NCBI GenBank assembly: GCA_038040455.1
Contig: JBBPIH010000039.1
Span: 4,998-68,997, forward strand
Source: Acidobacteriota bacterium
GTDB lineage: Bacteria > Acidobacteriota > Blastocatellia > UBA7656
Length of the DNA: 64,000 nt
Reading direction: 5' to 3'
Part shown: positions 26,421 to 60,974 of the stretch, one piece after another
Layout: every line of letters begins with the position of its first letter
Position numbering within the stretch: position 1 is the stretch's first letter
The notes under the pieces: model-generated
The model's database searches: none
What the model was told of the DNA's origin: nothing
The model's input: the letters and a program-made list of their open reading frames with translations, nothing else
Made by a program: the position numbers and the translations under genes

Positions 26421-27161
26421 CTAAACCTTCTCAAAACCGCTTTCTTGCATCTCGTGCTCCGCCTTGGGCTCGTGCTCCTCGTCGACCACGCGGCCATCAA
26501 ACAAGTGCACTTGCCGGTCGGCGTGACGCGCGTAGCGAGGATCGTGCGTGACCATGCACACGGTCGCGCCCTGGCCATGCAACTCGCGCAGCAGCTCCAT
26601 CACCGCTTCGCCGTTTGTAGAGTCGAGGTTTCCAGTGGGCTCATCCGCCAGGAGGATCAGCGGATCGCCGGCTACCGCTCGCGCTACTGCGACGCGCTGC
26701 TGTTGACCGCCGGATAGCTGGCTCGGAAGATGCTTCGCGCGATGGGCCATGCCGACGCGTTCGAGCGCATCCATCACTCTCTTCTTCCGCTCGGCGGCTT
26801 TGGTGCCGCGATAGGTCAGAGGCAGCTCGACATTCTCGAAAACGTTGAGGTCACCGATCAAGTTAAAACTTTGAAAAATGAATCCGACCTCGCGATTTCG
26901 AACTCGCGCGCGTTCCGACAGCGGCAGGTCCGAAACTGGTTTGCCCGACAGCGAGTAGGTTCCGTCGGTGGGCGAATCCAACAAACCGAGAATGGAAAGC
27001 AGCGTTGACTTGCCGCAGCCCGAGGGCCCGGCTATCGAGATGTATTCGCCCTTCTTGATTTCCATATGAATCCCTGACAGGGCGTGGGTCTCAACCTCGT
27101 CGGTGAGAAATACCTTTGTAACACCTTCGAGCCGAAGCAGCGGTTGGTCGCTTGCGCTCAT
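26421..27161 (-). CDS. ABC transporter ATP-binding protein (MacB/LolD-like nucleotide-binding domain only)
   Basis: It has Walker A (GPSGCGKST), the signature LSGGQQQRVAVARA and Walker B (LLADEPTGNLD). It has no TM domain. Confidence 0.8.
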   Translation of the reverse strand: MSASDQPLLRLEGVTKVFLTDEVETHALSGIHMEIKKGEYISIAGPSGCGKSTLLSILGLLDSPTDGTYSLSGKPVSDLPLSERARVRNREVGFIFQSFNLIGDLNVFENVELPLTYRGTKAAERKKRVMDALERVGMAHRAKHLPSQLSGGQQQRVAVARAVAGDPLILLADEPTGNLDSTNGEAVMELLRELHGQGATVCMVTHDPRYARHADRQVHLFDGRVVDEEHEPKAEHEMQESGFEKV

Positions 27162-27199
27162 TTGTTTTCATTCCTCCAAAGTTTAGTAGATCGCGATCG

Positions 27200-28453
27200 T
27201 CAGTTAAGACGGATTCGATCATTGTTATCCCACTGGGTTGTGTCGGAGAGGATCACTATATCACCCTCCTTAAGGCCATCAATAACCTCGATTGTAGTCA
27301 CGGAACCTTTGCCGAGTTTTACTTGAACGCGGCTCGCGCCTGCGCGATCCGGATCGAGCTTGAAGATTCCGATCGTTGCGTTCTCGGATCCGTGAACCGG
27401 GCGATTGACCCAGAGTATGTTATCAAGCTTCTCCAGCTGTATCGTGCCGTCGACGCTCAAGTCGGGGACAGCACCCTTTGGCAGTTCCCCTTCGAGGGAT
27501 GCATCTACGGTGCGGGTGCCATTCTGGACTGAAGGGTCTATCCGAATTACCCTGCCGGCGATTATTCCGTTGCGCGTGTCAACCGACACCGGCTGGCCGA
27601 GTTGAATATCTTTAGCCTGAGTTTCAGAAATCTTGAGCTCCGCCTTGAGCCGCTTGGGGTTCGCTACTCTCGCGAGCTCCTGGCCGAGGGTAACTTGCTG
27701 CCCGACTTGAACTGCGACTGTCTGTAATTCTCCATCGATTCCCGCGCGGACTATCAGCGCGTCAAGTTGTCGGCGCTTGAGCTGCACTGCGTCTCTGAGC
27801 TGGCGAACTTTTTCATCTTCGGCGGCCAGCCTGGCTTTGGCTTCTGCTCGGCTGCCGGCCAGGCGCTTTCGTTCGAGCGTCACTCGATTGTCCAGGTCTT
27901 CTGCTGCGATTTGAGACAACTGCAACTCGAGCTTCGATTTCAAACCTTGCGTGGCGAGGGAATCGTTCACCTCGTATTGCATCTTGGCCTTCTTGAAATC
28001 AGAACTCACCTGGGCCAGCGACGCCTCTTGATCCAGGATCGTCTTATCCATTTGAACCTTCAACGTCGTGAGGTTGGCCCCGGCGCCGCGAAGTTGCGAC
28101 TCCGCATCGACAAACGCTTGTTGTATTTCCGGATTGGTCAACTCCATTAGCACGGTATCGGCTTTGACCTGCGCGCCAGGCTGGACGAGTCTCTTCTCGA
28201 TTCGGCCAGTGCTGATAGCTGGGACATAGCGAATCTCTTCAGGTACAAGCGTGCCTAATCCGCGAACATTGCGAAGCATCGGGCCTCGGGTGACTGTGCC
28301 TTTCCACAGAGTAGCGTCGTCAACGCTGGGAGCGGCAGGTTTCAAACGCGATACGCCGACGGTTATCAGCGCAACAGCTACGACTGCCGTTAGCGCGTAC
28401 AGGATCCTTCGAACTCGACGCTTTTTGGCTGCAGATTTACGCGGTATATCCAT
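27200..28453 (-). CDS. HlyD/MacA-family periplasmic adaptor (membrane fusion protein)
   Basis: It has an N-terminal TM anchor and a long coiled-coil, lipoyl and beta-barrel pattern typical of membrane fusion proteins. Confidence 0.7.
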   Translation of the reverse strand: MDIPRKSAAKKRRVRRILYALTAVVAVALITVGVSRLKPAAPSVDDATLWKGTVTRGPMLRNVRGLGTLVPEEIRYVPAISTGRIEKRLVQPGAQVKADTVLMELTNPEIQQAFVDAESQLRGAGANLTTLKVQMDKTILDQEASLAQVSSDFKKAKMQYEVNDSLATQGLKSKLELQLSQIAAEDLDNRVTLERKRLAGSRAEAKARLAAEDEKVRQLRDAVQLKRRQLDALIVRAGIDGELQTVAVQVGQQVTLGQELARVANPKRLKAELKISETQAKDIQLGQPVSVDTRNGIIAGRVIRIDPSVQNGTRTVDASLEGELPKGAVPDLSVDGTIQLEKLDNILWVNRPVHGSENATIGIFKLDPDRAGASRVQVKLGKGSVTTIEVIDGLKEGDIVILSDTTQWDNNDRIRLN

Positions 28454-28602
28454 GCTTCCTCCAACACCTTCTAAGGAAGTTCCGTGCCATCGGTGCGGCC
28501 CCCTTAACTCTTTCCGTAATTCATCTTAACACAACTGCGACGGTCACTGTAAGCGACCCGGCTTTTCGCTTCTGGGAACCCCGTGTTCAGAAGCGGACAC
28601 AG

Positions 28603-28678
28603 TAGCATAGACTTTAGTCTGTGTCTGGTGATTGCCCTTGTAGCGGAGTTACCCGACACAGACTAAAGTCTATGCTAC
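28603..28678. repeat. palindromic REP-like element, copy C (perfect 24-bp termini)
   Basis: Its termini are GTAGCATAGACTTTAGTCTGTGTC ... GACACAGACTAAAGTCTATGCTAC. Confidence 0.85.
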
Positions 28679-28679
28679 T

Positions 28680-29345
28680 TCAGTCGTTCACCACCCAACC
28701 GTCCCTCAGCTTGATGACCCGGTGCCCGTAAGAGGCATTTACCTCAGAGTGAGTGACCTGAATGATAGTCGTGCCCCCCTCGTTGAGCCTCTTGAACAAC
28801 TCCATGATTTCTTTGCCCTGGTCCGAATGCAGGTTGCCGGTCGGTTCGTCCGCGAGGATCACCTTTGGGTTGGCTATGACCGCCCGCGCGACGCCCACCA
28901 GTTGCTGCTGACCTCCTGATAGCTGAGTCGGATAAAGGTTTCGCTTACCGACAATTTGAAAACGGTCCAGCACGTCGCAGACTGTGCTTTCGCGCTCTGC
29001 TTTCTTAACGTCCCGGTACGACAACGGCACTTCGAGATTCTCGTAGACGGTCATGTGATCGAGCAGATGATAACTCTGAAACACGAAGCCGATGTTCTTA
29101 TTGCGCAACTCCGCTCGCTCCTTCTTGCCGAGCTTGTGGATCGGCTTCTCGAGAAAATCAAACTCGCCGGTCCACGCGCTGTCGTGCATGCCTAGGATGT
29201 GAAGCAGTGTCGACTTGCCCGCGCCCGACGGACCCATTATCGAAACGAACTCTCCCGCTTTGATATCGATGTTAACGCGGCGCAGCACAAACGTCTTGCC
29301 CACGCCCGACTCAAAAAACTTTTCAACGTTGCGTAATGCAATCAT
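28680..29345 (-). CDS. ABC transporter ATP-binding protein (second stand-alone nucleotide-binding domain)
   Basis: It has Walker A (GPSGAGKST), the signature LSGGQQQLVGVARA and Walker B (ILADEPTGNL). Confidence 0.8.
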   Translation of the reverse strand: MIALRNVEKFFESGVGKTFVLRRVNIDIKAGEFVSIMGPSGAGKSTLLHILGMHDSAWTGEFDFLEKPIHKLGKKERAELRNKNIGFVFQSYHLLDHMTVYENLEVPLSYRDVKKAERESTVCDVLDRFQIVGKRNLYPTQLSGGQQQLVGVARAVIANPKVILADEPTGNLHSDQGKEIMELFKRLNEGGTTIIQVTHSEVNASYGHRVIKLRDGWVVND

Positions 29346-29872
29346 AGCTGAACTCCTATGTTTTCAATCATAATGTCGCCGGATCTCTTGGCATTCGAGT
29401 GATGTGATGATACACGAAACAACGCTGCGGCCCAAAGAACTCCAAGCGATTCGAATAGTCATACTAGCCAAGTTCCGTGCCACGGAAGGCCACGGCGATA
29501 AACAGACAAATTGCGCGGCTTAGCGGGTGCCAGAGCGGTGAAGACAGGAGAGCGCTTTCCACTCGTGGGAATCGGTCTCCCACAAGCGGACAGGAAGATC
29601 AGCGGCGGATCGGGTTAGCGGCTGAATCGCACGTGATTGGTCGTTTCTTACCTCTCTTTGAACTCGCCCGCATTGAGCTGCTAGAATAAAACGCTTGATA
29701 GGTTCTGGAACTTCTTCTGAAGAGAATGATAGAACCAAGACTTTGGCTGCGAATCCTCGGGGCACTGGGGTCCTTTGGTTCATCTTCGCGCTGGATGAGC
29801 AACTCGACTCTCCTAGCTTGCGAGATTGCCTTCGATTTACTTGCCCACGGGCCATTGATTCAGAGGTAAGAG

Positions 29873-30199
29873 GTGGCGTACTTAGGCAACAGAAATGGGC
29901 CTCGTGAGTCAAATATCCTAGACCGAATGGGTTTCAGCTATTTTGGCTGCACGCCGGCAGGTCTTGAAGAGGATATTTCTTACCACCGTTTTGCGGAAGC
30001 ACGCGGAGAGGTCGTTCCAGTGCACGTAGATCAAACCGGGCGTGCTTATGTGGAGTTTAGTTCGCCAGAGCAAGGCAAAACTACAAAGTACGTGTTGGAA
30101 GAGCACGGCTATAACCTCAGGGGTAACATCGCGACGTTTTCGGAGGAGGAACGCGCCCATTGGCGAACGCGGGAATCTGCCGAGAATGCGGAACTCTAG
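29873..30199 (+). CDS. hypothetical ORF in a low-coding, lower-GC region
   Basis: It is the only sizeable ORF in 29346..30394. I see no motif. Confidence 0.2.
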   Translation: MAYLGNRNGPRESNILDRMGFSYFGCTPAGLEEDISYHRFAEARGEVVPVHVDQTGRAYVEFSSPEQGKTTKYVLEEHGYNLRGNIATFSEEERAHWRTRESAENAEL

Positions 30200-30394
30200 C
30201 GTTCGTTCGTATAGCGCGATGGATAACGTTCGAGTCTATATTGTTTCGAGCCAATCCTGCCGTAACCGAAGACCAATAGTTCAGACACAATGAGAGAGGG
30301 GCGCGTTCACTCAGGTTCTGCATTCTGATAGCGCAGCGCAATAAGGGGACGCTCCAATAAGCTGCGAGAGCTATGCAATACGATGTTGTTATGA

Positions 30395-31282
30395 TTGCCA
30401 GATCAAGGAGAAGTCTTGATGGTTAATGAAAACCCGACCTCCCGCACAGCCCTACTGTTTGACATCGATAATACGCTTACACCTCCCCGGCAAGTACTGA
30501 GAGAATCAATGGCGAACGTGCTAAAACGCCTTTGCCTTCCGTTTCATGTCGTAGCCGGGAGCCATCTTGATATTCTGCAAGAACAGTTTTTTGATCCGCT
30601 TTACGCATTCGGTTTCCGTAAGCAATTCGAAGCCTTCCTCAGCCTAGGTGGCGTTCATTATCGATGCGACTACTCCAAGGGGATGTCTATTGAGGTGGTA
30701 TCAGCATTTGACATGCGCGAATATCTCGGTGATATCGATTATTGCTTCCTAATGGACGTGCTTACGAAGACCCTTGGTTTTGCGACGTTCCGGCTACCCC
30801 CGACTCTTGAGGTTATCGGTGAAACCATAACTTATCGGGGCTCAATGATCAATTTCTGCCCAATCGGGAGAGCCGAACAAGAAAGCACAGAGTACCGGCG
30901 CAATCGAGATAACTTCGTGGAATTCGATCGTGCGTCTAATTACCGGCAAATCATGATGGAGCATTTAAAAGGCGAATTGTCGTCGCTCGTGAAGGACAGG
31001 AAGCTAACAATAGTGTTGGGCGGTCAGACATCGTTCGATATCAGTGTTGCAACTCGCGATAAGACATACGCGGTTCGAACGCTGCTGGACAGAGGGTTCG
31101 AACGGTTGGTCTTTATGGGCGACGCTTTGTTTGATGGCGGCAATGATGCCGCCATACGTGAATTCGCGGAGAACTGGCGTTCGGAGACCCGATGCCCACT
31201 TGAAACAATCCAGGTGAGCGGCTGGGAAGAGACCATCCGGCGACTCTATGAGCTTCAGTTCGTCGCTGAGCACGGTGATTGA
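30395..31282 (+). CDS. HAD-superfamily hydrolase of the eukaryotic-type phosphomannomutase (PMM, HAD-IIB) family
   Basis: It has motif I (LLFDIDNTLTPPRQ), a motif II region (VVAGSHLDILQEQF, compare PMM VGGSDFEKVQEQL), a K-containing block (GGQTSFDISVATRDKTYAV, compare PMM GGQISFDVFP.GWDK.YCL) and motif IV (MGDALFDGGNDAAI). The true start may be at MVNENP (30419). Confidence 0.5.
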   Translation: MPDQGEVLMVNENPTSRTALLFDIDNTLTPPRQVLRESMANVLKRLCLPFHVVAGSHLDILQEQFFDPLYAFGFRKQFEAFLSLGGVHYRCDYSKGMSIEVVSAFDMREYLGDIDYCFLMDVLTKTLGFATFRLPPTLEVIGETITYRGSMINFCPIGRAEQESTEYRRNRDNFVEFDRASNYRQIMMEHLKGELSSLVKDRKLTIVLGGQTSFDISVATRDKTYAVRTLLDRGFERLVFMGDALFDGGNDAAIREFAENWRSETRCPLETIQVSGWEETIRRLYELQFVAEHGD

Positions 31283-31290
31283 TCACACTG

Positions 31291-32322
31291 CTATTCTTTC
31301 AGGCTTTTTAGCAGATCATCGAACCAACCCTGATCTTTTGTGGACAGGCGGTCCATGTGACGAACGTATTGCGGCAATCTCTGAGGGTCAAGTGTCTCTA
31401 TCCCAAGTACAATCACTCGGCTGCTCCCGGTGTTGATTTGTTCGTGAATCCTGGATTCCAACTCGTGCAAACACCAGGGTGAATTGAGGAAACTCGGACT
31501 CAAACACGCAACGAGGTACTTACTGTTGTTCAGCGCTTGGTGTATCTTGGTAACAACTGGAAGCGTGGGTTTCCTCTGTACCTGATACCTCCACACCGAA
31601 AGCCCCTGGTTTTCAAGTCGGTTGGCAATCTGCAGCACGCGCTTTTGATCATGACCGGAGTGGCACAAGAAAGCATCAAATCGCTCGGGAGAGACAATAC
31701 GCCAGTCGCTAACCGCATTTTGAGTCACTTCCACCTTTACCAAGACCTGAAAGTCTTTGTTCCAAGGAATATTTCGGAGTCGTTCATAAAACTCTTCCTG
31801 ACCTAGAAAGAGATCTACTCCCATCTGACCATAAGCTCTTAGTCCCGCAATCACGAATTCAATCTTCTTATTAACGGTCCTCTTGGAGATTAGACAGTAA
31901 TCTTCTCTGATTCTGTCGTCCTGAAAATCAATCTCATACTTTCTTTTGTTCGCGCCGTGTAATATGCGGATTTCGGGATCTGGATCGAAGTGGATCGGAC
32001 AATTCCTTGTGGCAGCGTTTGCAAACGGGTTTGTAGGAGGGCCACCAATCAACACTCTGTGGCAGTCGGGCAATTTTGGCAGTTTATAGGCGAACGCTAC
32101 TTCTACCTTACCAGGGTACGATCTCTCAAGAAGGGAATAAACTCGCATTGCCGAGTATAGATCATCTGGAAACACGTAGTGGTCGAATAGGGGATAGTTT
32201 GCGCATTGCAAGGTGAAGGTATTTCGTGGCCGCTCCTTCCCGGGGACGAAGATCTTTATCTCCTTAGGACGATGACCAAATCCGAAAAACTCTTTTGCAA
32301 GCTTGTAGACCTCACTGTCCAT
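31291..32322 (-). CDS. two-domain protein with an uncharacterised N-terminal domain (about 210 aa) and a C-terminal TIR domain
   Basis: The TIR motifs are FDAFLCHSGHDQ (the betaA (D/F)xFISY-type motif), LVACLSPSFLNSPWCLHELE (the S..WC..EL alphaC motif containing the conserved catalytic-position Glu) and VIVLGIE. Its stop is 9 nt from the convergent PMM-like gene. Its start is overlapped by 11 nt by the NUDIX gene stop. Confidence 0.7.
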   Translation of the reverse strand: MDSEVYKLAKEFFGFGHRPKEIKIFVPGKERPRNTFTLQCANYPLFDHYVFPDDLYSAMRVYSLLERSYPGKVEVAFAYKLPKLPDCHRVLIGGPPTNPFANAATRNCPIHFDPDPEIRILHGANKRKYEIDFQDDRIREDYCLISKRTVNKKIEFVIAGLRAYGQMGVDLFLGQEEFYERLRNIPWNKDFQVLVKVEVTQNAVSDWRIVSPERFDAFLCHSGHDQKRVLQIANRLENQGLSVWRYQVQRKPTLPVVTKIHQALNNSKYLVACLSPSFLNSPWCLHELESRIHEQINTGSSRVIVLGIETLDPQRLPQYVRHMDRLSTKDQGWFDDLLKSLKE

Positions 32323-32836
32323 TTTGCGAGTCCTTTTTCAGGTATTTGTCCAGACCGGAGAGTACCTCAAGGGTGCTTTTGAATTTAGTGCTTGGCAAAT
32401 CCCGCAAGTCGAACCAACCGTAGTCTAGTATCTCTTCTCCGACATCAATTGCATTGGAGACTAGGCTCGCTTTGTAAAAAAGGTTTAAGCAGAATTCTGC
32501 ATTAGGTCCATAAGTATCCACGGATGCTGTCAGAAGTTCTCCGATCTTAACCTCAGCGTTCAGCTCTTCCTTCATTTCCCTGGTCAGACCACGCTCAGGT
32601 GCCTCTCCGTATAGCAGGAATCCCCCCGGCAGATCCCACGTTGAATGTGAGATCGAATCACAAACCATAAGTACTGTATCTTCTTGAAGAATTACCGCGC
32701 ACACGGACGGCTTTGAATTCAGATACATTACCCTCCCACACTCCTGACATCTAGAGCCCGATTCTTGAAGAAGCTCAGAGATCTGCTTGCTCCCACAGAA
32801 CTGACAAAACCGAGCCTTATTATTCGCATACGGCAT
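32312..32836 (-). CDS. NUDIX hydrolase with N-terminal CxxC-x15-CxxC zinc ribbon (NudC-like architecture)
   Basis: It has a zinc ribbon (CQFCGSKQ...CQECGRVMYLNSKPSVCAVIL) followed by a Nudix box (GGFLLYGEAPERGLTREMKEELN, i.e. Gx5Ex7REUxEExGU). It lacks the SQPWPFPxS motif of bona fide NADH pyrophosphatases. Confidence 0.7.
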   Translation of the reverse strand: MPYANNKARFCQFCGSKQISELLQESGSRCQECGRVMYLNSKPSVCAVILQEDTVLMVCDSISHSTWDLPGGFLLYGEAPERGLTREMKEELNAEVKIGELLTASVDTYGPNAEFCLNLFYKASLVSNAIDVGEEILDYGWFDLRDLPSTKFKSTLEVLSGLDKYLKKDSQNGQ

Positions 32837-32940
32837 AGCAGATCTCCCATCCGAGCCTAAACCGCAGACTTCGTCGTGAAGCCTGGCCCTCCAGCAGGTA
32901 AAGTAGCCTCGCGAACAAGTACAGTGCGCTTGGGGAGCGC

Positions 32941-34101
32941 TTAGATCGTCTCTTCTATGACCTGAGCTATGTAGTCGATCTCTTCTTTGCTAATCCCTGA
33001 ATGTACGGGCAGAGATACGCATGTTCCGGAGAAATACCGAGCGCTATTGACTTCGCCTATAAGCCTAAACGGGAGTTGCCCATACACGGGTTGGTGGTCG
33101 ACACAATATGGCCACATGACCCGGGTTTCAATCCCGTGACGGGAAAGTGTCTCTCTCAAACGCTCGCGATATTGAGACAGAATTGTGAATGTAAAGCCAT
33201 TGGATTTGAAACGACTATCCTTATACGCTTCTAACGCCAGGTTCCTCAGCGCGTCTTTCTCAAGGTAGTAACTTATGACCTGGCGACGATTGCTCAGAAT
33301 CTGTTCCTTGCGGCGAATCTGTGAAATGCCTAAGGACGCAGCAAGGTCAGTCAAGCGATAATTGCCGCCGAAAACATCATAAGAGTATTTCTTTCCAGGT
33401 GTCTCACCGTGATTCCTGATTTGTCTAAGCAGAAGCGCCAGATTCTCGTCGTCCGTAACTATTGCGCCGCCTTCACCAGTAGTCAGAGGTTTGGCCGCAT
33501 GAAAACTAAAGATAGCCGCCTTACCAAACGAGCCAGCCGGAGTGCTGTTAGTGTGCGCGAGGAAAGATGAAGCCGCGTCTATCATCAAGATGATTCCTCT
33601 GTCTTCGCACAGACTGGAGATGTCTGACCAATCATTTGCAAAACCGGAATAGTCTATTCCTATCACAGCTCGCGTGCGCGTTGAGATACAGGGTAATACA
33701 GTTTTAGCATCAATCATTCCAGTGTCTCTGCTTATATCAGCGAGAACCGGGAGTGCACCTGACATCGTTACGGCGAAAGGGACGGCAATGAACGACATCG
33801 CCGGTATTATTATTTCACAAGTGTTCGAAACGCCGAGAGCTATCAACAGACACACTAGAGCCGAAGAACCCGAATTCACAGCCACGCAATATTTCCGATT
33901 AGAGTAGAGTGCGACTAGACGTTCAAACTCCTCAACCTTTGCACCCTGCGAGATCCAGTGTGAGTCAAAACATTCCTTCAATGAATCAGAATCTTCCGAG
34001 CAAATGTCTGGATTTGCCCAACTGACTTTGAGCTTGGCTTTCTCCTTCATCGCATCCCTGATCTGTCTTCGGAATCTAGCAACTTGTTCGCTTCGTGGCA
34101 A
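32941..34101 (-). CDS. DegT/DnrJ/EryC1/StrS-family PLP-dependent sugar aminotransferase
   Basis: It has an N-terminal HWISQG..VEEFE block. The PLP-lysine region is FSFHAAKPLTTGEGGAIVTDD. The start may be at 34050 (MKEKAKL). Confidence 0.75.
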   Translation of the reverse strand: MPRSEQVARFRRQIRDAMKEKAKLKVSWANPDICSEDSDSLKECFDSHWISQGAKVEEFERLVALYSNRKYCVAVNSGSSALVCLLIALGVSNTCEIIIPAMSFIAVPFAVTMSGALPVLADISRDTGMIDAKTVLPCISTRTRAVIGIDYSGFANDWSDISSLCEDRGIILMIDAASSFLAHTNSTPAGSFGKAAIFSFHAAKPLTTGEGGAIVTDDENLALLLRQIRNHGETPGKKYSYDVFGGNYRLTDLAASLGISQIRRKEQILSNRRQVISYYLEKDALRNLALEAYKDSRFKSNGFTFTILSQYRERLRETLSRHGIETRVMWPYCVDHQPVYGQLPFRLIGEVNSARYFSGTCVSLPVHSGISKEEIDYIAQVIEETI

Positions 34102-34416
34102 TGCGGCCAGCGCTACCTTTCAGAATTGTCATCGGTGTTCCCTCCGCCTGTCTGGAAGGTCATCTCGGATAACGCCCCCGTTTGCCCAAGCGCATACATT
34201 GACGGGGACTTTTTTTCCCTCATAGTGGGATTGGTGAGCAAGGAATTCAAGCGATCGATCTAAACCCGAACTACGAAACGGCGCACTCCTACTTAAGGTC
34301 TGTCGTTGATGATGATGGGTGCGTGCACGAAAAGATGGCAGAGGTGAACCAAGGGGAGAAGCTGGACCCGCTCCTCGTCATGGCGAATATCGGCGCGGCG
34401 TAGAGGTTGAAGCCTT

Positions 34417-35268
34417 TTACAAAGCAGTAGCGCTGAAGGTATCTCCCTGGCTGATGTCGCCCGTATCAAATCCTTTGCGAAACCAGCGGAGGCGTTGCTC
34501 TGAAGTGCCGTGGGTGAACGAGTCAGGCACAACGTACCCCTGAGATTGGCGCTGCAGCCGGTCGTCGCCGATGGCACTTGCCGCTTGAAGCGCTTCCTCA
34601 ATGTCTCCGGGCTCGACGATGCCTCTGCTCTTGGCGTGATGCGCCCATACCCCTGCCAGGAAATCAGCCTGAAGTTCGAGTCTGACCGAAAGCTGGTTCG
34701 CCCCCTCTTTTCTCAGACGTCCCTGGGCGGCATTGACCTTCTCCATCGTCCCCAGGAGGTTTTGGATGTGGTGGCCGATTTCGTGCGCCATCACGTACGC
34801 CTGCGCAAAGTCTCCCGGAGCGCGAAACCGTGTCTTCAACTCTCGATAGAACGAGAGATCAATGTAAACCTTCCGATCGCTCGGACAGTAGAACGGACCA
34901 ACCGCGGAGCCGGCAATACCACAACCGGAACGGACCTGATCGGTGAACAGAACCAGCGTGGGTGCCGTGTAGCGCTTGCCCGATTTGCGAAAGATGGCAG
35001 TCCAAACATCCTCTGTGTCGGCGAGCGCTGCCCCGACGAACTGTCTGAGTTCCGCCTCCTCCGGGTTAGTCGGGCGCGAGGTCCCGGACCCTGAGCCCGG
35101 AGCACCGCTTGGGACCTGTTCTAACAACTCACCCGGATCTGCGCCGAGCAGCAGTGCGATCACCAGTACCACGATACCGCCAAGACCGCCGCCGACGGCC
35201 ATCCCACCGCGTGAGATACCTCGCCGATCCTCAACGTTGTCGCTTTGACGCCGATCCTTCCAGAGCAT
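34417..35268 (-). CDS. YpfJ-like putative neutral zinc metallopeptidase (membrane anchored)
   Basis: It has an N-terminal TM helix, a HEIGHH zinc-binding motif and the overall pattern of PF04228-type proteins. Confidence 0.6.
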   Translation of the reverse strand: MLWKDRRQSDNVEDRRGISRGGMAVGGGLGGIVVLVIALLLGADPGELLEQVPSGAPGSGSGTSRPTNPEEAELRQFVGAALADTEDVWTAIFRKSGKRYTAPTLVLFTDQVRSGCGIAGSAVGPFYCPSDRKVYIDLSFYRELKTRFRAPGDFAQAYVMAHEIGHHIQNLLGTMEKVNAAQGRLRKEGANQLSVRLELQADFLAGVWAHHAKSRGIVEPGDIEEALQAASAIGDDRLQRQSQGYVVPDSFTHGTSEQRLRWFRKGFDTGDISQGDTFSATAL

Positions 35269-54004: not shown

Positions 54005-55321
54005 ATGGCAGATCTGAAAGAAACCGCAAAGCGCGTATTCCTTGGAGCCCTAACGGCGATCGAACCCGACTCTGTGATTAAGCAAAGCGTGCGAGTCGTT
54101 GGTGAGACGCTGACCGTTGGCGCCGAACAGATAGCTCTTGATACCTATGACGAAGTGGTATTGATCGGAATGGGGAAGGCTAGCTTGAAGATGGGAGCTG
54201 CGGCGGAGAATCTTTTCGGCGAGCGAATCAAAAGGGGCATTCTAGTGACCGACCGCCGCTCGCATATACGCGTAAGATCCGAAGTTGTTGTCGCTGGACA
54301 TCCATTGCCTGATGTCAACAGCCTGATAGCTGGCGAAAAGATTTTGAATGTGGTGCGGTCGTGCGGCGCGGGTTCTTTGATAGTGTTTCTAATCTCAGGG
54401 GGAGGCTCCTCGCTGGTGGAGTCGCCGTTGTCGCCGCTGATATCGCTTGGAGATCTTCGAGTCACGACTCAAGTTCTGATCCGATGCGGAGCTACCATTC
54501 ACGAGATAAACGTTTTCAGAAAGAGTCTGTCGAACATAAAGGGGGGACGACTTGGACGCCTTGCTAAGAATTCGAAGTGCGTTGGGCTGTACATGTCAGA
54601 CGTCAACGCCGGCGATTTGCGTTCGATCGCTTCAAACCCGCTTTTGCCAGAAAGGGTCGAAACCGAGGACTTCTTTGATGTGGTGAATAAGTTCAACCTG
54701 ATGGACGAACTCCCCAGGTCGGTGGCCAGCGTGATTCGACATCGAGATCTGGTCAGTTTGGCGGATGACGGAAGCAGGGCCGGGGCGCAGCCGGTGACCC
54801 TGCTATTGTTGGACAATTCTAGCGCAGTCCAAGCCGCGGTGACCCTGGCAAAGCAGTCTGGGTTTCGAGTAGAAGTGGATGCTGACCTGATCGAAGGTGA
54901 ATATAGAGCCGTCGCTGATCAATCGATTGATCATCTCTTGAAACTCAGTTCTTCGTTTCCGAATGAACGGGTCTGCGTGATATCGGGGGGCGAGGTTTCC
55001 TGCTCTGTGCGAGGCGATGGTATCGGTGGGCGCAACCAGGAATTCGTGCTATACTCGGCAGCGCGGTTGGCTGGCGCAGGCATCCTTAAGCCAGCAGCAG
55101 TGCTTTCGTGTGGCACGGACGGTATTGACGGAAACAGCAAAGCAGCAGGGGCAGTTGCCGATGCAGAACTGGTGATCAGGGCGGCACAACGCGGAGCAGA
55201 TGCCTCAATCTTCATAAGCAGCAACGATTCTCATTCGTTTTTCAAGAAGGCGGGCGGCCTCGTTGTAACGGGGCCCACGGGCAACAATGTCAGGGACCTT
55301 AGGATCCTGATGGCTCAATGA
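54005..55321 (+). CDS. glycerate kinase of the MOFRL/DUF4147 family (GckA/TtuD-like)
   Basis: It has the LIGMGKAS motif, the GGGSSLV P-loop-like motif and a C-terminal MOFRL block (SCGTDGIDGNS). The first in-frame ATG within the coding-looking region is at 54005. Confidence 0.7.
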   Translation: MADLKETAKRVFLGALTAIEPDSVIKQSVRVVGETLTVGAEQIALDTYDEVVLIGMGKASLKMGAAAENLFGERIKRGILVTDRRSHIRVRSEVVVAGHPLPDVNSLIAGEKILNVVRSCGAGSLIVFLISGGGSSLVESPLSPLISLGDLRVTTQVLIRCGATIHEINVFRKSLSNIKGGRLGRLAKNSKCVGLYMSDVNAGDLRSIASNPLLPERVETEDFFDVVNKFNLMDELPRSVASVIRHRDLVSLADDGSRAGAQPVTLLLLDNSSAVQAAVTLAKQSGFRVEVDADLIEGEYRAVADQSIDHLLKLSSSFPNERVCVISGGEVSCSVRGDGIGGRNQEFVLYSAARLAGAGILKPAAVLSCGTDGIDGNSKAAGAVADAELVIRAAQRGADASIFISSNDSHSFFKKAGGLVVTGPTGNNVRDLRILMAQ

Positions 55322-55368
55322 TGCACAGTCTTGTTAGGTTTATTTCGATGGCAAATGGAGGACGAGAG

Positions 55369-55851
55369 ATGGTAAGACTCATACCGGTAATGGCAGTTCT
55401 TCTTTTGTTGTTGGCCTGTGACAAAAAGTCTGCTCCCGTGGCTAGAACTCAGAAGGATCCAAAGATTGCAGCGATCGAGGAGAGGGTCTCGAAGACGACG
55501 CCGGAAGGGAAATTGATCATCGAGAAGGTTCTAGCAATGAAGCCCGAGGTGAATGAGCAGGTGTCGACCAAGACGGTTGGGGAGATGGTGGACGACTATG
55601 CCAAGAACAAGGGCGCATACAACATAACAACAATCGGCTGGGAAGCGTCTCTAAAGAAGCTTCGGCCCGCAGAGAAAGCAGGTCGATGGAAGGTAGTATT
55701 CAACTACCAGGATTGGCAGAAGCAGTTGCTAGCGGCGGAGTGGGAATATAATTCCGATACGAACCAGCTATACCCCTTCGACAAGGACAATGCGCCGCAA
55801 TTCTATAGCAATGAAGGAGCAGAGCCACCAGGAAAGAAAGGCAAGAAATAG
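55369..55851 (+). CDS. hypothetical lipoprotein
   Basis: It has a lipobox, LLLLLAC, after a short leader. The ATG at 55369 has a ggagga RBS. Confidence 0.4.
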   Translation: MVRLIPVMAVLLLLLACDKKSAPVARTQKDPKIAAIEERVSKTTPEGKLIIEKVLAMKPEVNEQVSTKTVGEMVDDYAKNKGAYNITTIGWEASLKKLRPAEKAGRWKVVFNYQDWQKQLLAAEWEYNSDTNQLYPFDKDNAPQFYSNEGAEPPGKKGKK

Positions 55852-55912
55852 CATCGAACTGTTGTCCGCATCAGGTCAGTGGAAGAGTTAGACCGCGCCA
55901 GATTTTTCGATA

Positions 55913-57316
55913 ATGAAGTCGGTAGTCCTTATTGTTGACGACGAACCAGCCGCCCGGTACGGAATGAAGAGGGCGCTGGAGAAGGAAGGGTACACCATCC
56001 TTGAAGCCGACAGCCTCGCGACTGCTGACGAGGCTGTCGAGAATTATGCACCGGGCGTCGTTCTGCTAGACGTCAGACTGGCCTCCGGATCAGGTCTGGA
56101 GTATTTGCCCACCCTTGTTTCGCGAGAATACCCGCCAGTTGTTATAATAGTCACCGCGCACGGCTCTGAGCGTATGGCCGTTCAGGCAATTAAGCTTGGC
56201 GCTTATGACTACCTTTCAAAGCCTTTCGATGTCGACGAGTTGCGTATCCTCGTTCGGAACGCTGTCGAAACGCATTCGCTGAGAACGGACAACGCGAAGC
56301 TGCGACGCGAACTGGCGGCGACCGGTACCTTTGGTCAATTGATTGGGTCGTCCTCCGCAATGGAAGCCGTTTACTCTTTGATTGAGAAGGTCGCGCAGAC
56401 TGACGTCACTGTCTTGATTACAGGTGAGTCGGGTACTGGTAAGGAGATGGTTGCCAGAGAAATTCATCTGAGGAGCCGGAACTCTTCAGGTCCGTTTGTC
56501 AGCTTGAACTGCGCGGCTCTACCAGGAGAGCTCATCGAGTCTGAGTTATTTGGCCACGAAAAAGGGGCGTTTACAGGAGCTTCCGGAAGAAGAGTAGGGA
56601 AGTTTGAAGCTGCTAATGGCGGTACGCTATTTCTGGACGAGATAGGTGACATGAGCCTTTCGACGCAAGCAAAGGTGTTGCGTGCTATAGAGGAGAGGAC
56701 TTTTCAAAGGCTGGGCAGCAACGAAACATTCTCCACTGATGCGCGGATAGTAAGCGCTACCAACAAGCTGCTTGAAAAAGAAGTTGAGTCGGGCCGATTC
56801 AGGGAAGATCTCTACTATCGCCTTTGTGTCGTTAAGATAAACTTGCCGCCTCTGCGTGACAGAAAAACTGACATTCCAGCGCTCGCCAACGCCTTTTGTC
56901 ACAGGTTTTCGCTCGCATATAAGGACGAGCCGTTGAAGATCTCTAAGAGTGCCCTTAAAGTATTGCTCGAATATGATTGGCCGGGCAATGCGCGACAGCT
57001 AAGAAACAGCATTGAGAGAGCCGTTGTTCTTACTGACAGCGCAGAGATTACGGTCGAAGCTTTACCTGAAGAAATACTTTCAGATCGAAGTCCCGGTCGG
57101 CCCACGGTCGCGGCCTCCGGCCGCATTACGGCTTCCCAGTCCCAGGATTTCAGGACCGCTAAGAAAGAGTTTGAACGACAATTCATCGAGGATTCCCTTG
57201 ATCAAGCAGGCGGTAACGTAACCAAGGCGGCGGCCAAGCTAGGGATGCACCGTCAAAGCCTTCAGCACAAGATCAAGGAACTCGGATTAAGCAAACGCTT
57301 TGTTTCGGATGATTGA
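55913..57316 (+). CDS. sigma-54-dependent Fis-family response regulator (REC-AAA+-HTH)
   Basis: It has a REC domain (LIVDDEP...D), Walker A (GESGTGKE), the GAFTGA sigma-54 contact motif and a C-terminal HTH. Confidence 0.85.
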   Translation: MKSVVLIVDDEPAARYGMKRALEKEGYTILEADSLATADEAVENYAPGVVLLDVRLASGSGLEYLPTLVSREYPPVVIIVTAHGSERMAVQAIKLGAYDYLSKPFDVDELRILVRNAVETHSLRTDNAKLRRELAATGTFGQLIGSSSAMEAVYSLIEKVAQTDVTVLITGESGTGKEMVAREIHLRSRNSSGPFVSLNCAALPGELIESELFGHEKGAFTGASGRRVGKFEAANGGTLFLDEIGDMSLSTQAKVLRAIEERTFQRLGSNETFSTDARIVSATNKLLEKEVESGRFREDLYYRLCVVKINLPPLRDRKTDIPALANAFCHRFSLAYKDEPLKISKSALKVLLEYDWPGNARQLRNSIERAVVLTDSAEITVEALPEEILSDRSPGRPTVAASGRITASQSQDFRTAKKEFERQFIEDSLDQAGGNVTKAAAKLGMHRQSLQHKIKELGLSKRFVSDD

Positions 57317-57333
57317 CTTTCGCGTGCTTTTCT

Positions 57334-57762
57334 TCAGAAGGGAATGTCGTCTTCAGTGACCGGTGCAGCCGACCCCTCTTGTGCACGCGGTTTGGCGTGT
57401 GACTCGTCCCTCATCTGAGAAGCGTCGTCGCCGCGCGGGCCGACGAACTGAAGGTCTGAAGCGTTAACATCCAAACTCGTCCGGGTATTGCCGTCTCTGT
57501 CCTGATACTCCCTTTGGGTCAAGCGTCCGTCGATGTAAACCAGCTTGCCCTTACTTAGGTATTGGCTCGTTGCTTCTGCCTTGCCACCCCAGACGCTCAC
57601 ATTGAACCACGTCGTAACATCCTGGAATTCTCCTGCTTTGTCTTTTTTGCGTTCCGTGGTTGCCACCGAGAAGTTACAAACGGCGGTACCTTGGGGTGTG
57701 TATCGCAATTCTGCGTCACGACCCAAATAGCCAACTATAGTTATCCTGTTAAACGACGCCAT
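57334..57762 (-). CDS. ssb: single-stranded DNA-binding protein
   Basis: It begins MASFNRITIVGYLGRDAELRYTPQG (an OB fold) and ends with the acidic tail DDIPF. The ATG at 57760-57762 has a GGAGGA RBS. The N-terminal extension of the track ORF is rejected. Confidence 0.85.
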   Translation of the reverse strand: MASFNRITIVGYLGRDAELRYTPQGTAVCNFSVATTERKKDKAGEFQDVTTWFNVSVWGGKAEATSQYLSKGKLVYIDGRLTQREYQDRDGNTRTSLDVNASDLQFVGPRGDDASQMRDESHAKPRAQEGSAAPVTEDDIPF

Positions 57763-57902
57763 ATCTTGATCCTCCGATATTGGTTGTTGTGCGCTCGCGC
57801 TGCTCGCAACGAGCTGACACTTTGTTTGACCCAGGCTAACTGTAAGGGTGAACTCTATGAGAGTTCTGTTGGCACGCCATTGAAGAGAGGCGGAGCCCAT
57901 CT

Positions 57903-58376
57903 TCACATCTTATAATCGCTGGCATCGTCAACAAGGCTCTCAGGCCAGTCGTCTTGTTGCGAAGCCGTGTCTTCAGTGATAGCGGTGCTGGAGTTCTTGA
58001 TTACCTCATCGTTGACGTAGATGGGACAGTCAACGCGTAGGGCTAAGGCGATAGCATCGCTTGGCCTCGAATCGACCACCATAACTTCGCCCTCTCTTGT
58101 TAACTCGATCACCGCCAGGAAAGTGTTGTCAATCAAGTCCGTAATTACTACTCTTCTCACCGAGGCGCCGAATTCCCAGATAATATTCTTCAGCAAATCA
58201 TGAGTCATCGGTCGTTGCGTAGCAAGTTTTTCAATCTCGACTGCAATAGCGTTGGCTTCAAACGGGCCAACCCAAATGGGAAGCATTGACTCTCCGTTGA
58301 CGTCTTTGAGAATGATGATCGGCGTGTTTGCTGCAGGGTCCATCATTAGGCCGCGGATTTTCATTTCAATTTCCAT
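57903..58376 (-). CDS. bifunctional nuclease (DUF151/BFN) family protein
   Basis: It carries LPIWVG..EA.AI and RPMTHDL patterns typical of BFN domain proteins. Confidence 0.55.
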   Translation of the reverse strand: MEIEMKIRGLMMDPAANTPIIILKDVNGESMLPIWVGPFEANAIAVEIEKLATQRPMTHDLLKNIIWEFGASVRRVVITDLIDNTFLAVIELTREGEVMVVDSRPSDAIALALRVDCPIYVNDEVIKNSSTAITEDTASQQDDWPESLVDDASDYKM

Positions 58377-58800
58377 CGCTATTCCTCAACGGCTCGCGCT
58401 ATCGCATTTCGGCGCGACCATAAGCGCGCATTCTACGAATCATCTCAAAAAGAATATGGCAACCGAATTCGGTCCGATTAAATCACAATGGGTCAGGAAA
58501 GTCTACCAGTTAATTCTCGCGCACTGCTGCACTGCGCCGGCCATTATGGAGAGTTAGCCCGAAACTGATTTACCGTCGAGGTTCGGCCGCCAGGTCACGG
58601 AAGCGCTTGTGAACAAGTGGATTCGAGCTCGGCGAGAACGGTCACTTAATTCGTTCGCGCTGTCGAGTGCCAGCTCGTTAGCACCTGGATTGGAGGAACG
58701 TAGGCTATTAGCCGACTTACATAGGGTCGACCAGTGCTTGACACTGACCATCCTTAGCATTAGGATGCAGTCGTTTTGGCAGGCCGGAACCAGCAAGAAA

Positions 58801-59556
58801 ATGGTAATCGCCATAGCTAATCAGAAGGGTGGAGTAGGAAAAACAACAACGGCAATCAACCTGTCGGCTGCCCTCGCCCGTGCGGGTAAGAAAGTTCTCC
58901 TCATTGATTTAGACCCGCAGGCCAACAGCTCGTTAACTTTTCTAGCTCACGATGCGATTGAGTTATCGATATATGAGTTGCTCACTGACACTCAAGTTGT
59001 CCGTGACAACGTGATAAGGTCGACCTCACTCTCAGGACTGGACATTTTACCTTCCAGAATCAGCCTTGCGAAGTTCGAGAGCAAGCTGATAGGCGAGTTT
59101 GACGCTCCATTCAGGCTCAAAGACAGAATGGATGGGCTTGGTGACGCCTACGAGTACATTGTGATAGATACCCCTCCGACGCTTGGTCTCATCACTGTGA
59201 ACGCTTTAGTTGCTTCAGACTATCTGATTGTACCGATTCAACCATCGTACTTCGCTCTCGAAGGAACCGACGACCTGTTGGACACCGTTGAAAAGGTGAG
59301 AGCAAGACCTAATCCTGATCTTAAGGTGTTAGGGGTGCTCATAACACTTCTGGATAAGAGGACCACTCTTGCGAAGGACATTCACGAACAGATCAGACAA
59401 GTATTTGGCGAAAAGGTATTTGATACAGTGATCAGCAAGTCCGTTCGCCTGGAGGAGAGCCCAGCTTATAAGGAATCGATTTTTACTTTCGCGCCGAACT
59501 CCACCGGCGCGGTCGAATACGCCAGCTTGTGCGAGGAGGTGATGCGTCGTGTCTAA
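58801..59556 (+). CDS. parA: chromosome partitioning ATPase ParA/Soj
   Basis: It has the deviant Walker A, KGGVGKTT. The start is ATG at 58801 (MVIAIANQKGG). The longer track ORF is rejected. Confidence 0.85.
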   Translation: MVIAIANQKGGVGKTTTAINLSAALARAGKKVLLIDLDPQANSSLTFLAHDAIELSIYELLTDTQVVRDNVIRSTSLSGLDILPSRISLAKFESKLIGEFDAPFRLKDRMDGLGDAYEYIVIDTPPTLGLITVNALVASDYLIVPIQPSYFALEGTDDLLDTVEKVRARPNPDLKVLGVLITLLDKRTTLAKDIHEQIRQVFGEKVFDTVISKSVRLEESPAYKESIFTFAPNSTGAVEYASLCEEVMRRV

Positions 59557-60367: not shown

Positions 60368-60391
60368 GAAACTCCCTTAAATGTTTTACCT

Positions 60392-60922: not shown

Positions 60923-60974
60923 AATTTTCTTGAACCGGCGAGACGTGTGTTTGCAGTAGCTTATCTGCGAATAT

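Follow-up and report, generated by a model that had tools for sequence, protein, structure and literature searches.

A conserved N-terminal domain with exchangeable heads defines a DegT-NUDIX gene cassette, possibly for nucleotide-ribose processing

In the kanosamine pathways (NtdABC; RifL/RifK/RifM), a DegT-family aminotransferase and a phosphatase together convert a sugar phosphate or NDP-sugar into a free amino sugar. The combination of a DegT enzyme, a Nudix hydrolase and an IMPase-type phosphatase is documented for Pur4/Pur7/Pur3 and AdgC/D/E; the Pur10/Pur4/Pur7/Pur3 core occurs in the puromycin and A201A clusters, and AdgB-E make 3'-amino-3'-deoxyguanosine in Photorhabdus luminescens (PMC9239236, PMC11641026). 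In a survey of conflict systems, TIR, PNPase and calcineurin phosphoesterase are typical nucleotide-directed domains and Nudix acts on ADPr (PMC7159879).

Here we analyse a 64 kb stretch of acidobacterial DNA (the window), one region of which encodes a TIR protein, a NUDIX hydrolase, a DegT aminotransferase and a phosphomannomutase (PMM)-type HAD enzyme (Table 1). The searchable literature yielded no account of this gene combination, a TIR-NUDIX-aminotransferase cassette not previously described. The initial annotation had proposed a horizontally acquired low-GC island at 29346-34300, of about 45% GC against 60%. The dip is real, the region being the lowest-GC 5-kb stretch of the window (~2.4 sd under the mean), but its depth was overstated, the measured values being 49.3% versus 55.5% in the remaining window, with GC3 of 0.49-0.55 for the region's genes versus mostly 0.59-0.72 elsewhere. 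Because the dip is modest and the GC of the cassette in other loci tracks that of the host (0.42-0.66), the case for recent transfer is weaker than claimed. The flanking genes do encode an ABC ATPase and a zinc peptidase (Pfam ABC_tran and Zn_peptidase), but the REP-like element placed at the border was not recovered, scans of both borders giving no such element or inverted repeat. The cassette was not found in any phages, plasmids or viral contigs, so that the argument for its mobility lies in its varied contexts and the modest GC dip.

Table 1. Features of the cassette region, in window coordinates.
Feature	Position	Strand	Basis or remark
Conserved small ORF, 108 aa, GTG start	29873..30199	+	upstream of, and co-oriented with, PMM-HAD gene
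Eukaryotic-type phosphomannomutase-family HAD-IIB enzyme, 287 aa	30419..31282	+	PF03332, E 5.8e-21
TIR domain, residues ~215-343 + stop codon	31291..31680	-	catalytic-position Glu E287 (WCLHELE)
N-terminal domain, residues 1-212	31687..32322	-	new alpha/beta domain, cassette signature
NUDIX hydrolase, 174 aa, N-terminal Cys4 zinc ribbon	32312..32836	-	PF00293, E 2.1e-16
DegT/DnrJ/EryC1-family PLP aminotransferase, 369 aa	32941..34050	-	PF01041 (DegT_DnrJ_EryC1), E 4.2e-84
Promoter-like hexamer pair TTGCCA-17-TAGATT	34073..34101	-	consensus scan, just 5' of probable DegT start; weak

All four gene and domain assignments made initially (DegT, zinc-ribbon NUDIX, TIR and PMM-family HAD) hold, but the full cassette extends beyond them to a phosphatase slot, mutases, kinases and SDRs. 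The DegT ORF (32941-34101, minus strand) opens at TTG 34101, and the PMM-HAD ORF at TTG 30395; comparison with homologues and independent gene calls indicate that the probable starts are ATG 34050 and ATG 30419, respectively. The promoter scan returned eight sites versus 4.8 +/- 2.2 expected, a number not significant alone. The DegT enzyme, in which the lysine motif SFHAAKPLTTGEGG is apparent on reading the sequence, scores under every NCBIfam equivalog cutoff (PseC, 227 vs 423.5) and is 51-65% identical to its orthologues in other cassettes. The NUDIX protein shares its four ribbon cysteines and its Nudix box, without change, with nine cassette orthologues; PDB matches include NudC, across both ribbon and Nudix domains (E 1.7e-06), and 3cng, and the NCBIfam NAD(+) diphosphatase model is weakly matched (39 bits vs a cutoff of 158). 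Its stop codon (32312-32314) overlaps the start of the TIR-protein gene (32322) by the 11 nt originally reported, and in 11 loci a NUDIX gene directly precedes that for the N-terminal domain.

The PMM-type HAD, placed in HAD-IIB by NCBIfam and with PMM1/PMM2 as its best PDB matches (E 8e-21), reads FDIDNT at its DxD motif. Its gene is convergent with the TIR gene, the stops lying 8 nt apart, and orthologues of 45-70% identity adjoin the cassette in four loci (L001, L011, L019 and L022); it occupies the phosphatase/mutase slot of the cassette. The supposed gap at 29346-30394 contains the 108-aa gene, which has no Pfam match, is also predicted as a gene in independent assemblies, and has a 54%-identical homologue directly 5' of the PMM-HAD gene in L019.

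The TIR protein (ORF 31291-32322, minus strand; start backed by N-terminus alignment and independent gene calls) matches Pfam TIR_2 over residues 218-324 (E 4.5e-20), and E287 is unchanged across 10 full-length relatives, in line with the fold and catalytic-position glutamate first proposed. Its N-terminal 210 residues, rightly called unrecognised, have no match in Pfam, NCBIfam or PADLOC, and no recognisable catalytic or ligand-binding homologue was found; the motifs GGPxTN, DYcLIsK, GLRAYGQ and FQvlV are invariant in this N-domain. Although the TIR call was correct, a TIR-centred view of the locus should be revised: it is the previously undescribed N-domain that defines the cassette, the TIR being a swappable head. 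In the same cassette elsewhere the N-domain is fused to PNPase (PNP_UDP_1), CAP12-type TIR, calcineurin-like phosphoesterase (Metallophos) or AAA domains, and the heads counted among 74 N-domain members comprise TIR_2 (18), PNP_UDP_1 (13), CAP12-TIR (3) and weak Nuc_deoxyrib_tr (3) matches. Judged by family, most heads are thus predicted to be enzymes acting on N-glycosidic bonds of NAD or nucleosides. At one syntenic spot (PMM-Fpg), L022 has a PNPase where L001 has its TIR, with DegT, NUDIX and PMM still orthologous; in L024, which lacks the NUDIX, the N-domain carries a fused calcineurin-like phosphoesterase. Since N-domains with an AAA fusion or with an additional 110 aa of unknown fold also exist, a glycosidase head is not obligatory.

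DegT, NUDIX and N-domain proteins co-occur, in varying order and at 30-65% identity, in ~12 independent metagenomic loci from about a dozen soil and sediment bacteria (contexts counted as independent: the window; L001 with L011; L004 with L016; L006; L007; L013; L018; L019; L022; L024; L025; L027). This conserved synteny bears out the proposal that the genes work together, and we read those at 29873-34050 as one functional cassette. That they are unrelated chance neighbours in a variable AT-richer stretch is hardly credible, being contradicted by the presence of the same families together in all these contexts at GC contents from 42% to 66%. The accompanying phosphatase slot holds either a PMM-type HAD or an IMPase, never both (~15 loci), and the set is often joined by a sugar-phosphate mutase, a kinase (GHMP or ROK) or an SDR. 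The PGMs are AlgC-type PMM/PGM hexose mutases; one mutase is a true phosphopentomutase (E 4e-126), an enzyme that partners nucleoside phosphorylases.

From the gene set, folds, conserved linkage and head swapping described above, together with the intact catalytic residues (E287, Nudix box, DegT Lys and HAD DxD), we infer substrates, step order, product and biological role. Our preferred reading, held tentatively and at less than even confidence, is that the cassette is a mobile, conflict-type nucleotide-ribose processing module, which would cleave NAD+ or nucleotides and use the ribose phosphate so released to make a small aminated compound. The TIR head would cut NAD+ at the nicotinamide-ribose bond, using E287, to give ADP-ribose or an ADPR conjugate, the pyrophosphate of which the translationally coupled NUDIX could split to AMP and (modified) ribose 5-phosphate. 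The phosphate would then be moved or removed by the PMM-type HAD, or in other loci by the IMPase with or without PMM/PGM or the true phosphopentomutase, and the sugar carbonyl aminated by the DegT enzyme, the output being a free aminated sugar or a small molecule resembling a nucleoside. This scheme may follow that of Pur4-Pur7-Pur3, i.e. amination, nucleotide removal and dephosphorylation. The N-domain, the sole constant part, is likely to bind the intermediate, be it sugar or nucleotide, and to link it with the nucleotide-cleaving head that it happens to carry. An SDR occurs in 3/3 loci in which the N-domain has no glycosidase head (L020, L024, L025) and in only 1/9 of those with one, a correlation over 12 loci that fits the head as source of a carbonyl-bearing reducing sugar. 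It may be that the immune-module and biosynthetic-pathway readings put forward in the initial annotation are one thing.

It is possible, though rather unlikely, that the cassette is instead an abortive-infection immune module, in which the N-domain would sense a ligand, made or destroyed by the DegT, NUDIX, phosphatase and mutase enzymes, that restrains or activates a TIR, PNPase or phosphoesterase head killing by depletion of NAD+ or nucleotides. The head repertoire equals that of conflict-system effectors (PMC7159879). Heads are exchanged at a syntenic site where the enzyme chassis is conserved, and evolution of the TIR is much more rapid than that of the N-domain or the enzymes; an nSTAND-CAP12 TIR gene adjoins L019, L011 and L004 have Xre-type HTH genes within the cassette or next to it, and PADLOC gives weak matches to ThsB (TIR part only), PDC-S66 and PDC-S07. 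There are also N-domain relatives with a fused TM helix or with EAD7 and EAD11, which are effector-associated domains, but these relatives are remote (E 1e-7 to 1e-4), and an infection sensor, i.e. a cyclase or STAND NTPase, is absent. Most cassette neighbourhoods surveyed have no recognisable defence island, and the non-orthologous displacement of mutases and phosphatases resembles selection for metabolic flux. To our knowledge, a ligand set by a four- to six-enzyme sugar-phosphate pathway is unprecedented in signalling immune systems.

Purely biosynthetic readings seem less probable. A hexose rather than ribose route is indicated by the closest solved relatives of the DegT enzyme, the GDP-perosamine synthases (E 1.4e-50), the GDP-mannose-pyrophosphorylase-like (GMPPB-like) nucleotidyltransferase gene in L001 and L011, and the AlgC-type PGMs; the eukaryotic-type PMM of the window and the extended SDR epimerase/dehydratases of L019, L020, L024 and L025 point the same way. 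Hexose-6-P might thus pass via hexose-1-P (PMM/PGM) and a GDP- or NDP-hexose to a keto intermediate, then to an NDP-aminohexose (DegT), aminohexose-1-P (NUDIX) and, by IMPase or HAD, a free amino sugar of kanosamine/perosamine/L-galactose type, with the N-domain-TIR protein as accessory regulator. There is no glycosyltransferase nearby, and the NUDIX and phosphatase suggest a free-sugar end product, for which RifL/K/M, NtdABC and VTC2/VTC4 are precedents. We nevertheless regard this route as unlikely: most loci, the window included, lack a dehydratase or dehydrogenase for the keto substrate, the window has no nucleotidyltransferase homologue, and neither the TIR, PNPase and phosphoesterase heads on an invariant partner nor the true phosphopentomutase is explained. 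More doubtful still, and in our view improbable, is a strict Pur/Adg-type pathway from NTP via 3'-keto-NTP to 3'-amino-NTP (DegT), NMP (NUDIX) and a 3'-amino-3'-deoxynucleoside (phosphatase), which would act as an antimetabolite by terminating chains or mimicking GTP/ATP. DegT, Nudix and IMPase-type phosphatase correspond at family level to Pur4/Pur7/Pur3 and AdgC/AdgD/AdgE, and the adg cluster is likewise a low-GC island (PMC9239236, PMC11641026), but the Pur10/AdgB-type Gfo/Idh/MocA dehydrogenase is absent from the window and most loci, the window has a PMM-type HAD instead of an IMPase, and such a pathway has no role for mutases, sugar kinases or a nucleotidyltransferase.

Relative to known systems, the cassette shares with Thoeris (ThsB TIR and ThsA effector), and with the other defences in which TIR domains signal through NAD+ derivatives or deplete NAD+, a bacterial TIR with catalytic glutamate and an NAD+-linked partner enzyme; its TIR part gives the weak ThsB matches. 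It differs in the fusion of its TIR to a new domain and in the sugar-phosphate and aminotransferase enzymes that surround it. The initial exclusion of Thoeris, CBASS, Pycsar and AVAST is upheld: ThsA (SIR2-SLOG or Macro-TM) or another recognised effector, a cyclase and a STAND partner are all absent, and PADLOC does not return the cassette as a system. The nucleotide-centred conflict systems that Kaur, Burroughs, Iyer and Aravind (2020, PMC7159879) predicted from comparative genomics have the same interchangeable-domain repertoire and Nudix as ADPr-processing partner, and some distant N-domain relatives bear EAD domains; the cassette lacks their STAND, vWA-MoxR or GTPase core, and the accessible part of that work describes neither the N-domain nor a DegT/IMPase/mutase linkage. 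With the kanosamine pathways the cassette has in common the pairing of a phosphatase with a DegT-family aminotransferase (NtdA is a detectable relative among PDB matches, E 8.8e-24); it lacks the NtdC/RifL dehydrogenase, and its NUDIX, N-domain-TIR protein and mutases are not part of those pathways. Compared by enzyme family, the cassette comes closest in its biochemistry to the Pur4/Pur7/Pur3 (AdgC/D/E) triad of aminonucleoside pathways, an analogy that replaces the one with MilB/BlsM drawn initially. Both are small AT-richer cassettes with a DegT aminotransferase, a Nudix hydrolase and an IMPase-type monophosphatase, predicted to act in series on a nucleotide-linked sugar. The present cassette differs in lacking the Pur10/AdgB dehydrogenase, in the PMM-type HAD that in the window takes the place of its sister loci's IMPase, in the NudC-like zinc ribbon of its NUDIX, in its added mutases and kinases and, without counterpart in the Pur and Adg pathways, in its invariant N-domain protein with a TIR or PNPase head.

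The island genes (window 29346-34300) belong to a conserved cassette, the signature part of which is the N-terminal domain of the TIR protein (residues 1-212, hereafter the N-domain). Each of the four domain assignments in the initial annotation is upheld by Pfam (TIR_2, NUDIX, DegT and PMM), as are the flanking ABC ATPase and Zn_peptidase genes, and the 11-nt overlap between the NUDIX stop and the TIR start is present in the ORF coordinates. Independent gene calls in further assemblies of this Acidobacteriota MAG agree with the island genes, with DegT beginning at 34050 and PMM at 30419. The kilobase that separates the ABC ATPase gene from PMM, apparently empty, carries orf108, a 108-aa ORF with no family match in Pfam, a 54% identical homologue of which occupies the same position in a related locus (L019), likewise with a PMM-type HAD gene. 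Adjoining the island, an HlyD-family membrane-fusion gene lies between two ABC ATPase genes (window 26421-29345 (-)), forming a MacAB-like exporter that is not kept at other cassette loci.

Genes of the island in window coordinates, with the support for each
Gene	Position	Strand	Support
Conserved 108-aa gene (orf108), between ABC ATPase and PMM	29873-30199	+	homologue and independent gene calls
PMM-family HAD enzyme, convergent with the TIR gene	30395-31282	+	Pfam 5.8e-21
343-aa protein with C-terminal TIR domain	31291-32322	-	Pfam TIR_2 4.5e-20
NUDIX hydrolase, 174 aa	32312-32836	-	Pfam 2.1e-16
DegT-family aminotransferase	32941-34101	-	Pfam 4.2e-84

The TIR protein family is rare, with 16 matches in a search of 5.8 billion proteins and a single locus across the 185,579 species representatives of GTDB. 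On contigs that are long enough, its relatives keep the same partner genes, with cassette orthologues 45-70% identical to the window proteins, while gene order and genomic surroundings vary. The PMM-type HAD and IMPase enzymes were never found together in approximately 15 loci and hence appear to fill a single phosphatase slot, which is held by IMPase in L004, L006, L007, L013, L018, L024, L025 and L027. Two loci with different heads, i.e. different domains fused to the N-domain (PNPase in L022 and TIR in L001), share a chromosomal spot beside PMM and Fpg.

Gene content of related loci on metagenomic contigs, listed in gene order
Locus	Genes
L001 and L011	GMPP-like nucleotidyltransferase, DegT, NUDIX, N-domain-TIR, convergent PMM
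L004	PMM/PGM, DegT, IMPase, NUDIX, N-domain-TIR
L007	IMPase, NUDIX, N-domain-TIR, DegT
L013	DegT, IMPase, NUDIX, N-domain-TIR
L018	PGM, IMPase, N-domain-TIR, DegT, NUDIX, second PGM
L019	orf108, PMM, SDR, N-domain-TIR, DegT, NUDIX
L022	DegT, NUDIX, PNPase-N-domain, ROK-like kinase, convergent PMM, Fpg
L024	SDR, IMPase, IMPase, DegT, adh_short, N-domain-Metallophos, unannotated gene, phosphopentomutase; without NUDIX
L025	PGM, DegT, IMPase, NUDIX, N-domain-AAA, convergent SDR
L027	CAP12-TIR-N-domain, convergent IMPase
Contig of the N-domain protein P0032	GHMP kinase, IMPase, N-domain protein

Individual loci carry further genes. Xre-type HTH_3 regulator genes occur within the cassette of L011, flanked by DegT on one side and NUDIX on the other (L011:7172-7465 (+)), and just upstream of that of L004 (L004:868-1266 (+)), where an 846-aa protein is also encoded upstream in the cassette orientation (L004:1522-4062 (+)), having a glycine-rich kinase-like loop by eye and C-terminal TM helices, with no Pfam match. 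The L006 cassette is without NUDIX, and its N-domain-TIR gene is followed by two unannotated genes, one for a 236-aa protein that is 2H phosphoesterase-like by eye, with two H-x-T motifs, HVTFL and HVTIL (L006:5628-6338 (+)), and one for a 427-aa protein with a weak GHMP-kinase-like motif, E 0.21 (L006:6346-7629 (+)); in L017, a remnant of a gene of the latter type follows the N-domain as an out-of-frame fusion. Pfam gave nothing, or weak matches only, for these two proteins, for a 315-aa protein of L019 and for a 318-aa protein of L024. A 518-aa nSTAND1/2 NTPase and CAP12/Pycsar-type TIR protein, of a typical defence type, is encoded directly beside the L019 cassette (L019:11075-12631 (-)) and is the sole clear defence neighbour among the loci seen. 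In L018, the second PGM is followed by a xylose-isomerase-like TIM-barrel protein (AP_endonuc_2, E 2e-26; L018:7700-8671 (+)) with a twin-arginine-like N terminus, which could possibly provide an additional sugar isomerase or epimerase step.

No other 5-kb stretch of the window has a GC content as low as that of the island, although the difference is modest (49.3% versus 55.5% for the rest of the window) and smaller than initially described; GC3 is 0.49-0.55 in the island versus mostly 0.59-0.72. No inverted repeat was found at either island border, where a REP-like element had been proposed, an Rfam scan of 29000-34600 returned zero matches, and promoter and terminator scans gave counts not above shuffled expectation. 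Across 10 related loci, cassette GC tracks host GC over the range 0.42-0.66, being slightly below the flanks in 8/10. The modest GC contrast, the lack of a border repeat and the tracking of host GC suggest an accessory and probably mobile unit rather than a fresh foreign insertion. The N-domain is absent from viral contigs in IMG/VR, its fold had no match under E 0.1 among BFVD viral structures, and a plasmid search with the N-domain protein gave matches to the TIR domain only. A second, milder low-GC stretch (window 55300-61000, genes at 0.49-0.54 GC) encodes SSB, a bifunctional-nuclease-domain protein, ParA/ParB and a sigma-54 response regulator, a gene set which suggests that the window is probably chromosomal, near an origin region.

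In agreement with its description as unrecognised, the N-domain is without a match in Pfam, NCBIfam or PADLOC. It is better conserved than the TIR domain to which it is fused (mean pairwise identity 44% versus 27%), and its invariant polar residues include R33, Y43, D53, D54, T97, N98, D141, Y142, R162, Y164, Q166 and Q192. Modelled alone (pLDDT 89.6), it resembles only non-catalytic alpha/beta domains, i.e. the N-terminal domains of GH115, GH67 and GH84. When 1.84 billion representatives were searched with a profile, 205 clusters were recovered, 28 at E<=1e-30; the N-domain is a new protein domain of about 200 representative clusters for which there is no Pfam model. Among 74 members covered, the fusion partners are TIR_2 (18 members), PNP_UDP_1 (13), a CAP12/Pycsar-type TIR (3), a weak nucleoside deoxyribosyltransferase-like domain (3), a calcineurin-like phosphoesterase (2), and AAA, EAD7 and EAD11 (1 each), and distant members, 245 aa long, begin with a TM helix. 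N-domains with heads other than TIR_2 occur inside the same cassette (L022, L024, L025 and L027). Three proteins considered as stand-alone N-domains (P0003, P0006 and P0014) are fragments ending inside the first TIR strand, and so give no evidence of TIR-less forms. Overall, the observations in the initial annotation were largely right and its interpretation is partly supported, with the gene linkage and the new domain with interchangeable heads being stronger than claimed, and the GC contrast and REP element weaker.

Read from the sequences, the catalytic motifs of the cassette are intact. The C-terminal region of the TIR protein belongs to the flavodoxin-like TIR fold, as proposed, and the glutamate at the catalytic position (E287 of WCLHELE) is invariant in 10/10 full-length N-domain-TIR proteins. 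The NUDIX protein has an intact Nudix box and, directly N-terminal to the Nudix domain, the NudC-type Cys4 zinc ribbon expected of it (C11, C14, C30 and C33, all invariant). Its alignment to NudC spans ribbon and Nudix domain; the NudC signature motif, SQPWPFPxS, is missing from the alignment of the cassette NUDIX proteins. Assignment as a NudC-type NAD(H) diphosphatase was rejected on this motif and on score (39 bits versus a cutoff of 158); the protein is without the NudC N-terminal domain and comprises only 174 aa. The HAD enzyme is assigned by its sequence to the eukaryotic-type phosphomannomutase (HAD-IIB) family (PF03332, 75.7 bits versus a gathering threshold of 22.4), with PMM1 and PMM2 as best PDB matches and a predicted DxD nucleophile motif, FDIDNT. 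The aminotransferase belongs, at family level, to PF01041, its closest relatives being GDP-perosamine synthases (E 1.4e-50); its identification as GDP-perosamine synthase, PseC or another named equivalog fails, all scores lying under the NCBIfam cutoffs (best, PseC, 227 versus 423.5 bits). In the related loci, the IMPase is closest to the histidinol-phosphate phosphatase HisN (E 9e-42), the 'Metalloenzyme' of L017 and L024 is a true phosphopentomutase (E 4e-126), the PGMs are AlgC-type PMM/PGM, and the L001 nucleotidyltransferase is GDP-mannose pyrophosphorylase-like.

From the conserved cassette, its intact motifs and its swappable head we infer, as a preferred but tentative reading, a flow from nucleotide to aminated sugar. 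The head would unmask a ribose, TIR by converting NAD+ to ADPR and PNPase by converting a nucleoside to ribose-1-P; the pyrophosphate would be cut by NUDIX, or by the fused phosphoesterase where NUDIX is missing; the sugar phosphate would be handled by mutase and phosphatase; and DegT would aminate a carbonyl, with the N-domain binding the intermediate and coupling it to the head. This flow is suggested by the tight pairing of NUDIX and N-domain, by fusion of the phosphoesterase to the N-domain exactly where NUDIX is missing, by the true phosphopentomutase and sugar kinases within the cassette and, in a small sample, by SDR genes in 3/3 loci in which the N-domain is without a glycosidase head versus 1/9 with one. 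With the N-domain-linked partners retained across such varied surroundings, a coincidental gene neighbourhood is scarcely credible.

According to PMC7159879, prokaryotic conflict systems draw most often on TIR, PNPase and calcineurin-like phosphoesterase, all of them heads here, as their nucleotide-directed domains, with Nudix acting on ADPr; a sensor-effector abortive-infection module, with the enzymes setting the ligand level, is on the unlikely side. The relationships of DegT to GDP-perosamine synthases and of the L001 nucleotidyltransferase to GDP-mannose pyrophosphorylase would fit a GDP- or NDP-hexose route to a free amino sugar, which would leave the TIR protein as an accessory and is quite unlikely. 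At the level of sequence, this route and the abortive-infection module both shade into the preferred reading. The Pur and Adg pathways depend on the Pur10/AdgB dehydrogenase (PMC11641026, PMC9239236), and no such NAD-dependent NTP 3'-dehydrogenase (Gfo/Idh/MocA family) was found in the island or most cassette loci; a strict Pur-type 3'-aminonucleoside pathway is highly improbable. An aminocyclitol (inosamine) pathway, raised by the co-occurrence of IMPase and DegT, was rejected because inositol-phosphate synthase and inositol dehydrogenase are both missing and NUDIX would be left without a function.

TIR domains of bacteria are known to consume NAD+, either to generate a signal or to kill. In this cassette, TIR comes firmly tied to a Nudix hydrolase, an aminotransferase and sugar-phosphate enzymes, and the chassis also accepts a nucleoside phosphorylase or phosphoesterase in its place. 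Should these enzymes act on what TIR makes, NAD+ cleavage would for the first time be seen to supply biosynthesis of an aminated sugar or nucleoside; alternatively, the immune signalling chemistry could be of a new type. More doubtfully, the N-domain may be a new sensor or adaptor, its ligand being a small molecule of sugar or nucleotide origin that DegT, NUDIX, phosphatase and mutase would build from NAD+- or nucleotide-derived ribose; if so, TIR/PNPase chemistry would supply a messenger or toxin resembling an aminated ribose or nucleoside, and the system, whether for immunity or for chemical warfare, would be of a new class. The chance that the cassette represents a new class of system is similarly modest, though real. 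Its source is Acidobacteriota-type soil and sediment bacteria, the accessory biology of which is, to our knowledge, almost unexplored.

No account of the gene combination was found in the literature searched, and PADLOC has no model of the cassette, giving only weak ThsB, PDC-S66 and PDC-S07 matches. With PADLOC and Pfam, no ThsA-type effector (SIR2-SLOG or Macro/TM) was detected among all island genes or at the related loci, nor is there a CD-NTase or pyrimidine cyclase in the island or conserved cassette; since these partner genes are absent, membership of Thoeris, CBASS or Pycsar fails, as the initial annotation had held. DegT, Nudix and an IMPase-type monophosphatase constitute Pur4/Pur7/Pur3 of puromycin and A201A biosynthesis and AdgC/D/E of the Photorhabdus 3'-amino-3'-deoxyguanosine operon, itself a low-GC island (PMC11641026, PMC9239236). 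The window encodes DegT and Nudix family members, as candidate counterparts of Pur4 and Pur7; in place of the IMPase-type monophosphatase (Pur3) it has a PMM-type HAD, the sister loci having IMPase. The cassette may be a Pur10-independent variant of aminonucleoside logic, possibly a source of new antimetabolites, and is best viewed as a variation on both TIR/NAD-centred conflict modules and Pur-like tailoring sets.
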